Positions 14,763 to 35,010 of a stretch of 64,000 bases of DNA are shown here, one piece after another (position 1 is the first letter of the stretch; each line of letters begins with the position of its first letter). Source of the stretch: Candidatus Micrarchaeota archaeon (lineage in GTDB: Archaea; Micrarchaeota; Micrarchaeia; Norongarragalinales; Norongarragalinaceae); assembly GCA_016207165.1 (NCBI GenBank), contig JACQQD010000001.1, forward strand, positions 32,001-96,000, given 5' to 3'. Position numbers and translations under genes: made by a program. A model generated the notes under the pieces. The model was not told the origin of the DNA, ran no database searches, and saw only the letters and a program-made list of their open reading frames with translations.

Positions 14763-14880
14763 CGGGCCCGGTGGGATTTGGACCCACGACATTTCGGTCA
14801 CTCTGGAGGACGCGGTTGCCAGTACGGCAACCGCTTCGCGCTTAAGAGCCGAACGCTCTGCCAAGCTGAGCTACGGGCCC
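14763..14880 (-). tRNA. tRNA-Lys(CTT) with 44-nt intron (14799-14842)
   Basis: GGGCCCG acceptor stem, TTCGG/CCGAA anticodon stem, intron at 37/38 containing a perfect hairpin. Confidence 0.9.
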
Positions 14881-14976
14881 ACAAACCAACACAAGCACTA
14901 ACCGTCGTTGCATTGGTTTGACAGAAAAAACGTTGTTCGGACCCTGGTTTATATGCGTTGTTTTCCCCGGTGCGTT

Positions 14977-15182
14977 GACTATAGCAAACCTCGAAAGTCT
15001 CGCAAGACTTGAGAGCCGTTTCTTGCAAGTCGGCACGACTTGCAAGGTCTTGGAAGCCGCAGCTTCCAAGGCCACACAAGTTCCGCCGAACTTGTGATGC
15101 CACACAAATCGCAACGGCGATTTGTGCTGTGCTAGATAGTCGTCCACGACTATTTCGTCGTCTTGTTTTCGTGGACGACTAT
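14977..15182 (+). ncRNA. Candidate structured ncRNA or DNA element: five tandem hairpins, basal stem and alternative 14-bp inverted repeat
   Basis: Stems read directly at 14995-15010, 15022-15046, 15047-15072, 15075-15096 and 15103-15126; TATA-like TTTATA near 14948; strand inferred. Confidence 0.6.
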
Positions 15183-15215
15183 AAATACACAAAACACGAA
15201 TACTCCGTGACGCAC

Positions 15216-15671
15216 ATGGAACACCCGTACGGCCCGCTTCTTGAACACTTCGGAAACGGCAAAGCGCAGTTCAAAGTGCAGCGGCACGCACGCGGGCCCT
15301 TGTTGGTGTTCACCGCAAGAACCCCGGAAGAAAAATCCGCGCTTTGGAACGAGGTCAAACGCGTTCGGGCAAAACTTAGGCAGACAGAACAAGAAGCGCC
15401 GAAACCGCAAGCACGACCCGCCGGCCTGTTCCAGCGAGTTTTTGGAATTGGAAGACAAAAAGAAACGCCGCAGGCACCCGCAGTTCAAAAGCATGAAGAA
15501 CCCAAGCTCCGTGAAAAGCCCAAAAACCCCGACGAACAGCTCCGCCAAGAGCTGGAGGCGTTGGCCCGCGACGTGTTTCCATCCGCGACACACTACGCCG
15601 ACGTCACCAAAGGGGTGTTGGCGCCCGGCACATTCACGTTGGAAGTGGCGCGGAGATTCAACGGGCCATGA
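15216..15671 (+). CDS. Hypothetical protein
   Basis: ATG 15216 downstream of TATA-like TATAAATA; ATGA overlap with trm56. Confidence 0.65.
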   Translation: MEHPYGPLLEHFGNGKAQFKVQRHARGPLLVFTARTPEEKSALWNEVKRVRAKLRQTEQEAPKPQARPAGLFQRVFGIGRQKETPQAPAVQKHEEPKLREKPKNPDEQLRQELEALARDVFPSATHYADVTKGVLAPGTFTLEVARRFNGP

Positions 15672-29572: not shown

Positions 29573-30875
29573 TTGTCTTTTTAAGCATCGCGCGATGCTT
29601 GGAATCTCAGCCCAACGCATCTCAACTCTTCGCCATCTCCGCTTGGCCAACACCGGTCCCGTACTTTTTAAACCCTTATTAAGGGCGCGTGGTTTCACCC
29701 GGCTTTACCTGCCTTATTTCAAGTGTGGCCCGGGTTCACTTCGGTTCTAGTTAACGGTATACCGCCAACGCCGGATCTTTGGCCTGAGTTCCGCCTTAAA
29801 CGAACCGAGACGGCCTTCTGTAGGCAGTTTTCATCAACGGCCCCTGCTTTTCTCGCACGACAATTTTTCATCAAGGCAACTCGTCAAGCCGGTATCTCTA
29901 GCGTTTTCCAGCAATGCCTTTTTCCTTTTGGGCCTGATTTTTTGACGTTTTTCCCTTGCTTGGGGGGGCGTGTAATGGCCGGTTTCCTGGTTTGGCCCGG
30001 TTTTCGCCCAAACGGTGGTTTTGGCGGGTTCTGACTGTCTTCGGGCCTATTTTCCGCCTGGCCCTGTTTTTTACTGCGTTGGGCCCCTAAAACCTAAGTC
30101 GTTTTTTTCGCGTCCTACTGGTTTTCGGCACCAATTTTTCATCCATCGCCAAAACATGGGCATTTTTTGGTCGATTTTTGGCAAAATTTTCTCGTTATTA
30201 TCGGAAGAAAAACACCATTAGTGGAACTTTGGGGTATTGTCCAATATCTTTTTGGTATTGCGTTTACTTACTCTCCCACTCCGTAATGGTGTTTTGATTT
30301 TGTGCCTTAGGAATGCATTTGGAGTGGTTTTTGGCTTGCTTTTTTGGTTCTTATCTTCTTTTTGTGTGTTTGGCTTATTTTTGGAGTTGTGTGTTTGCTT
30401 TGCGTCTTTTCTGTTTTCTCCAACCACGAGATTTATAAACTCCCTCATTATGGTGTATTGGTTAGTACGGGAATTATCTTGTTTTGATGGAACAAAATTA
30501 GCGGAATTGGCGCTTTTAGGGCTTTTTAGGCCAGAATTTCGTTTTGGCCCCCCCAAGTGGCCGGTGAACCTTATTTAATATCATAATGAGGAAACCTAGG
30601 TGCTTGGGCGTGTATTCGCGCCCTCTCCTTTTAACCCTTAGTTGTTTATTGTTATGGTGTTTGCTTTATTATATTACTCCAAAATGGTATTTGACTACTT
30701 GGTTCCTTTTCAGTGGAACTAATTAGTGCTTTCGGCCTATTTTCGACGGGTACTTTTCATGAAACCCTCAAATTCGGCCTTTTCAAGGCCTCTGGAAGCC
30801 CGTATTGGCCGTCGTTTTCCTGAGGTGGTGGGCCAAACAGGCAAATTCAACGCCTTTAGTTCCATTAAAATCAAA

Positions 30876-31139
30876 CTATTTTCCAGTTTTTTCGGCTTGA
30901 AACGACTTATGGTGCAATGAAAACCACTTCATCGAGTCGGCAAATTCTTCGGCTTCCCCGGCTTTGGCGGTTTTAGGCGTCCTAGCGCCTTGCTTTTGGC
31001 CCTTTTCAGCTAAGAGGTTTTGAATGGCTTTGTCCAAGCTACATTTTTTACCGGATTTGGCTTGAATTCGTCCAGCCAATTTTTGAAGCGATTTGTAGGT
31101 CTCATCTTGTACGCGAATCAATTTCGTCATTTCAGTCAC
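30876..31139 (-). CDS. Small RHH/VapB-like DNA-binding protein without a toxin partner
   Basis: KLIRVQDETYKSLQKLAG...SLDKAIQNLL. Confidence 0.7.
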   Translation of the reverse strand: MTEMTKLIRVQDETYKSLQKLAGRIQAKSGKKCSLDKAIQNLLAEKGQKQGARTPKTAKAGEAEEFADSMKWFSLHHKSFQAEKTGK

Positions 31140-31142
31140 TTA

Positions 31143-31299
31143 TTGTTTACTTTGTGACTTATATTTAATCCTTTTTACCTCTAGAACTCCGATTCTTTTC
31201 TTCATTTTTAATTTGTATTCTTAGTATTTTTTGTTTACTTCATTTAACTGTATTTTGTAAACTATAAATTGTTTACTTTTTAGTATATTTAATTTACTT
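31143..31299 (+). repeat. TTGTTTACTT direct repeats
   Basis: Exact copies at 31143, 31231 and 31269; variants at 31152 and 31292. Confidence 0.65.
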
Positions 31300-32397
31300 T
31301 CTGTTCTTTGCTTCCGGTAAAAATGAACTCAATTTTTTGAACTTCAAGCCTAAATCTGCCTACTTTTTGCCCAAAACGCTTTTTCCGAGCCTTTATTCCT
31401 ACAAAAATTGGCGCAAACGCGTTTTTTTGCCGTATTCCCTGGTTTTTTTGTTTTAATCCAAAAAAATGCCTATTTTAATCCTTTTTTCTCGGTTTTGGGC
31501 CCTTCTCCAACGGCCTTTCTGATTTCCAGGCCTAATTTCAATTTTTTTGGTGAAAATCTGCCTAGTTTCGATGTTTTTGTGTGTTTTCAAGACATTTAGA
31601 CGGAGTTTTGATCAATTCTCCTCGGATTTTATGTGAAAAACTGCCCATGACCGGTTTTTCCCGCTTTTTTTGGGGTCGGCAACCTATTTTTCAGTATTTT
31701 GAGGTAAAACATGCCTACTCTTGGGTTTTTTTGGCTTGCCTTACGTCTTTTTTTGTCGAAAACTGGCTATTTGACGGGGGTTTTCCTTGTTTTTGAGGTA
31801 AGCCGGGTTGGTTGCGGGCTTGAAATGATTTTCTTTGGCCTCTTGGTCCGTTGGGATTCGGCTTTACTTCTTGTTCTGGGACTGTTTTTGTTTCCCAAGT
31901 AAAAAACGATTTATTTTTGCGTTTTTCTGCCTATGTTTTTTCCTGCCTATTTCGATTGACCCCCGTCCAAACCATCGACATTTATAAAGGCTTTATAAAT
32001 CTCTTTTGGGGTGGCGGGGGTGTGTGTCATGAGCTCTTTGGTTTGAATGTGCCAAATTCCAGGGTTTGGCGATGTTTGGGCGTTTTTGACGGGTTGCTGG
32101 CGGGTCTTGGGATGGCGGGCGTTCCGGTCCGTACAACTTTTGGCGGTATACCGCTGCTAGGGGTGGCGGGGGGTTTGGGGCGGTCACGTAGTAAATGGCG
32201 TTCGGGCATCCTTGGCGTTGGCCTGCGTCAAATTGTTTTCCGTTGGTTTTGTGTTCGTGGAATTAGGTTCGCATGTCTGCTCTTGCACGCGTTTCTGTGT
32301 TTTTTTTTCTCTTGGTTTTTCGGTAACTTCCGGGCTGTTTGTGTTTTTTGACGTGGTGGCTTTCTTTATTGAACGCGGGTGAATCATAGTATTCGGT

Positions 32398-35010
32398 ATG
32401 TCCTTTGATCCGTCGCTGTACCTTCACTCCGAGGTCCTGCATTTGGCAAAGCGGCGGGGGTTTGAGTCTTTTACTTTGGTTCAGCAGAAGGCGTTTCCGG
32501 AGGTGGCGGCGGGAAAAAACGTGTTGGTCATGGCGCCGACGGGTTTTGGAAAGACGGAGGCGGCCATGCTGCCGATTTTGTCCAAGTTGGTCCAGGAGAA
32601 AGGCGAGGGGGTTCAGTGTCTGTACATTACGCCGTTGCGCGCCTTGAATCGGGACATGTTGTCGCGCATGGAGTTTTTCTGCAAGATGCTGGGGTTGCGC
32701 TTGGGGGTGCGGCATGGGGACACGACGGCGTACGAGCGCGTCAAACAAAAAGAGCAGCCTCCCCACGTCTTGATCACTACGCCGGAGAGTCTGGGCGCGC
32801 TTTTGGTGGCCGGCATGCGGGACTCTTTGGTCAACGTCCGGTTTGTGGTGGTCGATGAAGTCCATGAATTGGCGTACTCCAAGCGGGGCGTGCAGTTGAA
32901 CTTGGCGTTGATTCGGCTGGGGTTGTTGGCCCCGTTTCAAGTCATTGGGTTGTCCGCCACGGTTTCGGCTCCAAGGGACGTGGCGGCGTTTTTGGGGGAA
33001 GGCGTGGGGGTGGTGGACGCGTCGGAGTTGCGGTCGCTGGATTTGTCGGTGGAGTACCCCAAAAAAGCGGTGGCCATGGAAGGGTTGAAACCGGATACGG
33101 CCGCCCGGTTGGTGCGGTTGGAGCAACTCATTGCGTCGCACGGCAAGACGTTGGTGTTCGTCAACACGCGGTTCATGGCTGAAGCGTTGGGGGCCTTGCT
33201 TCGGCCGCTTTTGGGCGAGGATTTTGCTGTTCACCACTCGTCGTTGTCCAAGGAGGCCCGTCTGGAATCCGAGGAGGCGTTCAAGAAAGGGCAACTCAAG
33301 GCCTTGGTCTGCACGTCTTCCCTTGAACTAGGCATGGACATTGGGGACGTGGACTTGGTGGTTCAAGTGGGTTCCCCCCGCCAGGTCACGCGGTTGGTTC
33401 AGCGGGTGGGGCGGTCGGGTCACAAGCATCATTTGACGCCCAAAGGCGTGGTTTTGGCGTTGGATGAGTTGGATGAATTGGAGGCGAAGGTGTTGGTGGA
33501 CTTGGCGCATGCGCGTTTGTTGGAGCCGCAGGCGCCGCGGTTGGGCTGTTTGGACGTGTTGGCGCACCAAATCTGTGGGCTGGCGCTTGAATTTGGCCGC
33601 ATCCGCTTGGAGGGCGTGGTCAAGAACTTTCGGACATCCCGCCTTTATGCCGGGTTGCTGGTTTCTGTTGCTAAAAAGGTGGTCGGTCAGCTGGTTTCGG
33701 AGGGGTTGCTGGCTTTTGACGGCGAGTTTTTGGAGCCGACCAAGCGGACGAAGTTTTACTATTACGAGAATTTGAGCACGATTTCGGATCTCAAGAAGGT
33801 GTTCGTCAAGAACGCGGAGTCCAACAAGAACGTGGCGCTTTTGGATGACGTGTTCGTGTCGAATTATTTGCAGGTTGGCGTCGCGTTCATCGCACGGGGC
33901 CGCGCGTGGCGGGTTTTAAGCATGGTGGACGATGAGTTGGTCGTCGAGCCGTCAAAAGACGTGTCGGCGGCCATTCCGGATTGGGTGGGGGAAGAAATTC
34001 CAGTGGCCCGGGGGGTGGCCGCCAAAGTCGCCGGCGCGCTTTCCGAGGGGTCTACGGCGTTTGGTAAAAAGCAGGCCGCGTTTTTCGTGCCGTCGGCTTC
34101 GGAGTGGGTGGTGGAATCCGAGGGCCCGGTGGTCGTGGTGCACTCTTTTTTGGGCCACCGCGGCAACGAAGCCCTTGCAAAACTGTTGGCGTTTTCTTTG
34201 GCGGCCAAAGGCAAATCGGTTCGGACGCGGGCGGGCGCGTACCACGTCTTGGTTGAATTTGGAAAGTCGGCGGACGCGGAGGCGGTGGCGGCCGTTCTTT
34301 TGGTTTGGCGCCAAAAAAGCGTGGCCGCGTTCCTCAAAACGCATTTGGTGGATTCGCCTTTGTTCGCGTCGCGGTTCGTGCACGTGGCCAAGCGGTTCGG
34401 TTTCCTGCAAAAAGACCGGGACTACCAAGCCGTTTCCGTCAAAAAGTTGGCGGCGGTGATGAAAGATTCCGTGATTGCCGAGGAAGTCTTCGCCGAATTG
34501 TTTTACGAGAAGCTGGACGTTTCAACGCTGGAATCGGCGTTGTCTTCGTTTCGCGTTTCGGTTCGGCCGTCGGGTTTTTCGCCTTTGGCCCGGCACGCCG
34601 TGGCGTTGGGTGGTTTCAGCGAACTGATTACGGCGGCGGAGCCGACGGAGAAGGTGGTGGCCGCGTTTGCCGAGGAATTGCGGTCTAAAAAGATTCAATT
34701 GCATTGCGGGTACTGCAACCAGCGCTTCACGAAATCCTTGGGCTTTTTGGAGGAGGCCCAATGCCTGTTTTGCGGGTCGCCTCGGATTTTTCCGGAGACC
34801 TATTCGGCGAAAAAAGACCAGCGCGTGGTCATGGATTTGGTGGCGGCGTACGGAAAAAACGCGTTGGTTGCGTTGAGTGCGTATGGCGTTGGGCCGGAGG
34901 CGGCCAAGCGCATTCTTTCACGGCTGCACAAGTCGGAGGACGACTTGTTTTACGACTTGCTTCAAGCCCAGAAGGATTTCATTCGGACGAAGAAGTTCTG
35001 GAAGGTCTAG
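32398..35010 (+). CDS. lhr: Lhr-family SF2 helicase
   Basis: APTGFGKT, ITPLRAL, TTPESL, DEVH, LSAT, QRVGRSGH, LDVLAHQI, C-terminal CxxC pairs. Confidence 0.92.
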   Translation: MSFDPSLYLHSEVLHLAKRRGFESFTLVQQKAFPEVAAGKNVLVMAPTGFGKTEAAMLPILSKLVQEKGEGVQCLYITPLRALNRDMLSRMEFFCKMLGLRLGVRHGDTTAYERVKQKEQPPHVLITTPESLGALLVAGMRDSLVNVRFVVVDEVHELAYSKRGVQLNLALIRLGLLAPFQVIGLSATVSAPRDVAAFLGEGVGVVDASELRSLDLSVEYPKKAVAMEGLKPDTAARLVRLEQLIASHGKTLVFVNTRFMAEALGALLRPLLGEDFAVHHSSLSKEARLESEEAFKKGQLKALVCTSSLELGMDIGDVDLVVQVGSPRQVTRLVQRVGRSGHKHHLTPKGVVLALDELDELEAKVLVDLAHARLLEPQAPRLGCLDVLAHQICGLALEFGRIRLEGVVKNFRTSRLYAGLLVSVAKKVVGQLVSEGLLAFDGEFLEPTKRTKFYYYENLSTISDLKKVFVKNAESNKNVALLDDVFVSNYLQVGVAFIARGRAWRVLSMVDDELVVEPSKDVSAAIPDWVGEEIPVARGVAAKVAGALSEGSTAFGKKQAAFFVPSASEWVVESEGPVVVVHSFLGHRGNEALAKLLAFSLAAKGKSVRTRAGAYHVLVEFGKSADAEAVAAVLLVWRQKSVAAFLKTHLVDSPLFASRFVHVAKRFGFLQKDRDYQAVSVKKLAAVMKDSVIAEEVFAELFYEKLDVSTLESALSSFRVSVRPSGFSPLARHAVALGGFSELITAAEPTEKVVAAFAEELRSKKIQLHCGYCNQRFTKSLGFLEEAQCLFCGSPRIFPETYSAKKDQRVVMDLVAAYGKNALVALSAYGVGPEAAKRILSRLHKSEDDLFYDLLQAQKDFIRTKKFWKV

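Follow-up and report, generated by a model that had tools for sequence, protein, structure and literature searches.

A hairpin array in a Micrarchaeota genome as a probable composite copy of a small palindromic repeat element

Described repeats and the hairpin array

The closest described systems to the array reported here are the Stowaway-type MITEs, the REP/BIME/REPIN elements and the BOX elements. Stowaway-type MITEs are characterised by a TA target duplication and are derived from Tc1/mariner/IS630 transposons. The REP, BIME and REPIN elements are found in Proteobacteria and are associated with RAYT transposases. The BOX elements of Streptococcus pneumoniae have the modular organisation boxA-boxBn-boxC.

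The repeat family to which the array belongs has features of each. Similar to Stowaway-type MITEs, it is short, non-coding, dispersed and prone to form hairpins; it ends in inverted repeats, is bordered by TA on either side with one TA where the site is empty, and is present in some close species and absent from others. It differs from them in that no DDE_3 domain was found in the five genomes tested and no autonomous partner was seen. It also has two hairpin modules with conserved loops instead of one long inverted repeat, and its cassettes nest at a fixed point of an arm. With REP/BIME/REPIN elements it shares extragenic palindromes, inverted doublets, mosaic clusters, compensatory stems and a high copy number. 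Unlike those elements it has a TA-flanked insertion, an archaeal host and a loop that is conserved and not variable, and there is no Y1 HUH transposase in the source genome and no GTAG-type tag on reading of the sequence. The BOX elements are likewise modular and non-coding, with fixed end modules, a variable number of internal hairpin modules and strong predicted structure. Their sequence and host are unrelated, however, and in the present family the internal modules lie inside the arm of an end module, nested in one another. No description of this repeat family was found in the accessible parts of the literature searched.

The window, the whole 64,000-nt stretch of DNA analysed, comes from the genome of a Candidatus Micrarchaeota archaeon (G000, 90% complete), for which two same-genus sister genomes (G001 and G002) are available. 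An earlier sequence-only reading had claimed five back-to-back hairpins, and all five are present in their places by sequence reading and by folding. Hairpin 1 of the array occupies 14995-15010 with a 6-bp core and can be extended to 14991-15014 with two mismatches. Hairpin 2 (15022-15046, 11 bp), hairpin 4 (15075-15096, 9 bp) and hairpin 5 (15103-15126, 10 bp) are perfect. Hairpin 3 (15047-15072) has 11 bp including one T.G pair; it was identified by sequence reading and by genome hairpin scans, and is missing from the inverted-repeat list of the window. A sixth hairpin of the same repeat element, which the earlier reading had missed, lies at 15137-15181 with a 13-bp stem and a 19-nt loop. 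The inverted-repeat search of the window records it as a 14-nt perfect inverted repeat (15136-15149 with 15169-15182).

As RNA, positions 14970-15150 fold at -84.4 kcal/mol on the + strand (z -8.0, with none of 200 shuffles as good) and at -86.3 kcal/mol on the - strand (z -6.7). As DNA, positions 14980-15183 fold at -62.8 kcal/mol on the + strand (z -11.2) and at -63.7 kcal/mol on the - strand (z -10.9). The folding of the array is far above chance and is similar for either strand. The whole 1.27-Mb genome contains 83 perfect hairpins whose stem reaches 9 bp or more, compared with 23 in shuffled sequence. At least four such hairpins within 60-nt spacing occur genome-wide only at the window site and at G000:C8:128022-128166. 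The array had also been said not to resemble tRNA, 5S, SRP, RNase P or CRISPR. A search of the stretch against Rfam 15 gave no family match; the best overlapping hit was mir-266, which scored 19.6 bits (E 3.1) where the gathering score is 80.

The array is probably one composite copy of a non-coding palindromic repeat, small in size, that Micrarchaeota carry as nested, non-autonomous, MITE/REPIN-like selfish mobile DNA. This reading is built on observation of the repeat family, of its boundaries and nesting, of sites filled in one species and empty in another, of a TA on either side and of structure preserved through compensatory changes.

Anatomy of the element and its family

The features of the locus, in window positions, are the following.

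14763..14880, - strand: intron-containing tRNA gene, anticodon CTT, read by eye as Lys; Rfam tRNA score 52.7 bits; divergent neighbour, outside the element
14948..14955, - strand: TATA-like box, an A-rich stretch on the minus-strand upstream side, kept in the element-free spacers of G001 and G002
14980..15183, no strand assigned: the complete 204-nt repeat element, in which a 109-nt block is nested within a two-module element of 95 nt and TA stands at either end; delimited by paralog alignment and by the match to covariance model R1
14982..15021, no strand assigned: 5' part of module 1, comprising the arm TAGCAAAC, hairpin 1 (14991-15014), GCC and the GTTT of the 3' arm; aligned with 15 canonical copies
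15022..15130, no strand assigned: nested four-hairpin block of 109 nt (hairpins 2-5), absent from the C11 paralog; homologous blocks in G001 and G002
15131..15136, no strand assigned: GCTA, which completes the 3' arm of module 1, and the central GA of the two-module element; no variation in columns 43-48 among the 15 copies
15137..15181, no strand assigned: module 2, whose 13-bp stem pairs 15137-15149 with 15169-15181 around a 19-nt loop (15150-15168); found by the nhmmer module profile at E 3.9e-8
15180..15187, + strand: TATAAATA, made of the last stem TA, the terminal TA and flank, at the TATA-box position of the downstream gene
15216..15671, + strand: downstream open reading frame of 151 aa, in frame with the listed ORF 15009-15671; the insertion lies in its promoter

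The element of the window spans 14980-15183, as shown by its alignment with a paralog at G000:C11:90295-90389, in which 95 nt are shared, 109 nt are missing and the flanks are unrelated. The paralog is a plain 95-nt element that differs from the window copy by two substitutions over the shared 95 nt. It is without exactly 109 nt, corresponding to about 15022-15130 of the window and hence to hairpins 2-5. The 5' part of module 1 (14982-15021) is identical in the two copies. The metagenome contigs that carry the paralog part from the window sequence exactly at 14980 and 15183. By this alignment, hairpin 1 is the host module's own hairpin, the sixth hairpin is module 2, and hairpins 2-5 form an inserted block. 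The block interrupts the 3' arm of module 1 between TT and GCTA, or, on the other strand, between AGCA and the next A, and its ends are ambiguous by 1-2 nt.

A basal stem had been proposed to close the array. Its TAGCA (14982-14986) with TGCTA (15130-15134) is the conserved stem of the module and stands. The outer GAC/GTC extension does not, as it brings together flank and next module and is absent from the C11 paralog; this remainder is a fortuitous pairing between flank and module 2. A skip of 109 nt (15020 to 15130) in metagenome contigs of four DNA runs was considered as evidence of excision and rejected, the joint being that of the C11 paralog with the paralog's flanks as loose ends; neither movement nor an excised or circular form was seen. 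The metagenome contigs break up inside the element, as is usual with repeats.

The remaining hairpin clusters of the source genome have sequence in common with the window array. A module profile, built from 20 modules, detects about 45 modules at about 32 loci in this genome. The basic module is a stem of 12-13 bp that opens with (T/C)AGCAA and closes with TTGCT(A/G), around an 18-19-nt loop with a conserved motif. This motif is also borne by the loop of module 2 in the window (15150-15168). At most loci a module on the - strand is followed directly by one on the + strand, giving a two-module element of 94-95 nt in the form of an inverted doublet. It starts with TATAGCAA, has TTGCTAGA(C/T)AGCAA at its centre and ends with TTGCT(G/A)TA. 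The modules are joined by GA, their conserved loops point opposite ways, and TA flanks both sides. The element of the source genome is short, non-coding, present in multiple copies and set in unrelated flanks, as a MITE is.

Fifteen canonical copies of 94-95 nt align with a mean column identity of 82%. Their terminal inverted repeats, TA(T/C)AGCAA and TTGCT(A/G)TA, are invariant or nearly so in 15/15 copies, and across the alignment the loop motif is conserved while the stems vary. Of the stem cells, 95.1% are paired; 13 of the 26 pairs have changed on both sides, and G.U accounts for 2 of 387 cells. The second helix is 99% paired across the 15 copies, with 9/13 pairs changed on both sides. 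The claim that the arms vary and yet stay paired is borne out by homologous copies, which retain pairing via compensatory changes. Covarying homologs, proposed earlier as a check, do exist, since copies in the source genome and in relatives carry such changes.

The nested block has its own relatives. BLAST against the sister genomes finds it at 71-80% identity at several other loci. Homologs from G001 and G002 (L046, L047, L050 and L052) have it at a position in the host arm identical to that of the window copy. A further copy (L048) has block entry at the same point, with the host rearranged on the far side. The host modules of these five copies differ from one another. Six block copies from three genomes align over 113 nt, with proximal stems and linkers conserved and distal stems and loops variable; 93.4% of the cells are paired, and 13 of the 41 pairs have changed on both sides.

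At G000:C8:128102 the outer two hairpins of the block occur by themselves; the arm that carries them is the mirror-image one, in module 2, and relative to it their polarity is unchanged. The window block may be a two-hairpin cassette with a second, similar cassette in its middle, a reading based on by-eye alignment. A second cassette type, with a TGCATGC linker, is present at other points of host elements (C7:5928, C7:33179, C8:128001 and C12:35215). In the sister genome, two full elements lie head to tail at G001:C1:245841-246028 with the terminal TA overlapping, as if one copy had gone in at the terminal TA of the other.

Other palindromes were recorded in the source genome. At G000:C11:34247-34571 there is, by eye, a - strand tRNA with an intron of about 130 nt that contains three perfect CAA-type hairpins like those of the cassettes. 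A second hairpin type, with T/C-rich stems, a TTTCTTT-type arm and mostly a CGGG-like loop, is found at G000:C6:89996, C6:92184, C6:95458, C8:850, C8:6191 and C11:34430; these lie at several gene ends and may be a terminator-like family. Two adjacent AT-rich palindromes with arms AAGTTAACT and AGTTAAGT, at G000:C5:32372-32414, are unrelated to the repeat family.

Turnover, distribution and the search for a mover

The spacer between the tRNA and the downstream gene is orthologous in G001 and G002, and holds no element there, either by eye or with covariance model R1 run with filters off. The only R1 match in L044 is weak (15.5 bits) and is on the opposite side of the tRNA. At the position of the window element the orthologs hold a TATA-like box with a single TA, GGAATAAAAACC in G002 and GGAATATAAGCC in G001. 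At a second locus, G000:C11:82350, both sister genomes read AATAAAAGG with one TA, and the source genome reads TA-element-TA followed by AAAGCGG. The single TA is clean at this second locus, where the flanks align well, and the alignment is less secure at the window locus. TA is present at both ends in 15/15 copies of the source genome and in 37/39 distinct copies from relatives. One of the two TAs might belong to the element instead of to a target duplication; element-free orthologous sites were found at two loci, each in two genomes. At two further loci (L073 and L077) the spacers are too diverged for the insertion point to be placed.

A comparison of 27 loci of G001 with flanks in the source genome gave six with both flanks mapped, none of which is strictly orthologous. 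Four of these six spacers are element-free in the source genome, two by alignment and two by the locus census list only, and the remaining two hold an element at another position or in another orientation. Element copies are up to 98% and 93% identical between species, compared with 67-85% for orthologous genes; the high identity of some copies could reflect selection and not recent movement. Dozens of copies appear to turn over between sister species.

The covariance model detects the family in 8 of 41 related genomes. The bearers include both same-genus genomes, one other genus of the same taxonomic family where copies are many, one where R1 matches twice, and, from two further families of the order, three genomes. 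In a phylum-wide sample the R1 family was found in 4/151 genomes. A 14-mer scan of public genome contigs returned at least 120 stretches, and among the matches listed almost all are bacterial and were taken as chance. When two of the 14-mer matches (L099 and L101) were checked with R1, only L101, from a record titled Candidatus Micrarchaeota MAG, proved to be a true copy. None of 23 stretches found in viral contigs with a gapped pattern matches R1, and the plasmid and phage collections gave no blastn match to the element.

Several transposase families were searched for a candidate mover. Y1_Tnp (PF01797, the RAYT/Y1 HUH domain) had no match in the source genome, although control genomes respond, and the TnpB zinc ribbon (PF07282) is absent from G000, G001 and G030, all of them element carriers. 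An IS200/IS605-derived PATE was rejected on these two results. DDE_3 (PF13358, IS630-type) is absent from five of five genomes tested. DDE_Tnp_1 (PF01609) is present in three of the eight element-bearing genomes. One insertion sequence of this type lies 140 nt from an element copy in G009 and was dismissed as a partner, because it forms a unit of its own and no likeness between its ends and those of the element was seen. Resolvase (PF00239) occurs in one of the eight. None of the five transposase families searched tracks the element; the genomes are incomplete, and assembly commonly fails to recover insertion sequences. An autonomous element sharing these ends was not seen. Outside the window, at G000:C1:163156-163587, the source genome carries a gene for a serine recombinase (Resolvase), its open frame 262 aa long, the sole one among the element bearers.

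On the reading as mobile DNA, a two-module element of 94-95 nt sits at a TA inside the TATA box of the gene starting at 15216. Its terminal TA, together with the flank, rebuilds a TATA box at the usual distance. Nested in the inner arm of module 1 is a second unit, read as a two-hairpin cassette carrying another in its middle, which accounts for hairpins 2-5. The element presumably moves as DNA, with its hairpins recognised by an enzyme as folded single strands or as a cruciform, and the window copy would have no RNA function of its own. The fallback of the sequence-only reading, a "ssDNA/cruciform element", is near to what the evidence favours.

A broader version is rather unlikely. It would make the family a self-nesting mobile DNA system of DPANN archaea, with a mover outside the searched transposase families that recognises folded hairpins and has two insertion targets, the TA within archaeal TATA boxes, which are rebuilt, and one set position in the element's own arms. 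If true, such a self-nesting hairpin system would be a new mechanism of transposition with built-in promoter targeting.

The family is recorded at single-base resolution in small, reduced Micrarchaeota genomes (0.7-1.6 Mb among those searched). The features documented are a TA-flanked two-hairpin unit, TATA boxes that remain usable after insertion, and cassettes nested at one set position of the arm. Repeats of this kind fragment metagenome assemblies.

Gene context, strand and promoters

On a crude calling of ORFs, 9 of the 32 loci have convergent neighbours, 9 divergent and 14 co-directional. Seven of the 32 overlap a crude ORF that is probably over-extended, and copies are found in either orientation relative to the neighbouring genes. 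Copies in transcribed spacers could act in a REP-like manner, their hairpins stopping transcription or shielding the 3' ends of mRNAs. This role is compatible with a mobile element, and the hairpins are very stable. Convergent loci are somewhat over-represented (9/32 against 87/480 background spacers), a weak enrichment that depends on the crude ORF calls. The window copy, however, is upstream of both neighbouring genes, and the explanation does not extend to it; as an account of the family it is quite improbable.

The sequence-only reading had proposed a single multi-arm ncRNA gene with a six-way junction. Against a single gene stand the occurrence of the repeat at about 32 loci, the empty orthologous sites, the presence of both orientations and Watson-Crick pairing that holds on both strands. 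A wider form of the proposal is a family of small structured ncRNA genes, in which each copy is transcribed and its 19-nt loop and variable arms bind protein or RNA as a multi-copy scaffold or sponge. The compensatory changes in the stems (13/26 pairs in the source-genome copies and 13/41 in the block), the RNA fold at z -8.0 and the conserved loop motif amid variable stems are all expected of it. The homologs of the block, moreover, include one invariant U.G pair and two more pairs that are each G.U or U.G in one copy, all in the + orientation, which is a faint hint of strand specificity. A functional RNA, or a site to which a protein binds, would likewise be consistent with the strongly conserved single-stranded loop motif and with the covariation.

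The pairing statistics of the relatives and the setting of the copies weigh against such RNA genes. Among 1007 stem cells in 39 distinct copies from relatives, 947 are Watson-Crick, 14 are G.T, 9 are A.C and 37 are other. As G.T (14) is about as frequent as A.C (9), there is no excess of the wobble pair that an RNA of one strand alone would tolerate. The loop motif of the two modules lies on opposite strands, and copies occur in both orientations and in all gene contexts. The insertions are TA-flanked with orthologous sites empty, and Rfam is without a match. The copies are without a conserved promoter, and the window copy is probably upstream of both neighbouring transcription units, between two divergent promoters.

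A TATA-like box had been noted about 25 nt upstream of the hairpins. Its A-rich element is on the minus-strand side and the box is conserved in orthologs that have no element; for these reasons the box at 14948-14955 is most likely the promoter of the tRNA and not of the hairpins. The tRNA gene adjoins the orthologous spacer in G001 and G002 too. ARAGORN did not call this tRNA, whose intron of about 45 nt includes a perfect 9-bp hairpin at 14812-14834. On balance, a family of ncRNA genes is very unlikely. For annotation, the false lead of a new multi-arm RNA gene is removed. Repeats of this kind can mislead structured-RNA searches because they show perfect covariation without being RNA genes. 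Integron attC sites, CRISPR, C/D and H/ACA sRNAs, group II introns and ribozymes were rejected, their motifs being absent, the hairpins being perfect and without pockets by eye, and Rfam giving no hit.

The downstream end of the element touches the promoter of the next gene. A diverged ORF is present at the same place as 15216-15671 in both sister genomes. In the window, TATAAATA (15180-15187) is situated 29-36 nt before the ATG at 15216. Over 206 genes of the source genome, A+T content peaks at -34 to -25 before the ATG, and the bins at -33 and -30 are where TATA-like hexamers most often begin. Among the 26 element ends reading TATA, 7 are followed 19-36 nt outward by the start of an ORF of 60 aa or more that opens with ATG, against 1 of 14 other ends. 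In controls with an 18-35 nt window, such an ORF follows 9.3% of random intergenic positions and 11% of the other TATA tetramers between genes. The binomial p for 7/26 is 0.012 against a 10% expectation. These TATA-end counts, with the two empty sites, suggest that insertion may prefer the TA of TATA boxes and leave a usable box, on modest statistics and crude gene calls.

The same counts could be read as a sign of a regulatory DNA module acting in cis, which would offer a transcription factor or chromatin protein a palindromic platform to bind, supply a TATA box and wire its neighbours into a regulon. The excess of ORFs at TATA ends over the controls, the agreement with the genome's TATA window of about -34 to -25 and the symmetry of pairing on both strands would suit it. 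The TATA boxes already exist in the element-free orthologs, however, and were therefore not brought by the element. In addition, 9 of the 32 loci are between convergent genes, and a superficial look at the neighbouring genes found no common theme. The stems vary freely if pairing is kept, unlike a double-stranded DNA operator. A regulatory module of this type is very improbable.

Elsewhere in the window, GC content falls to 0.43 at positions 30001-31000, and the GC skew switches sign there, from about -0.2 to +0.26. The drop and switch at 30001-33000 could mark an origin or terminus of replication, or an island of foreign DNA.
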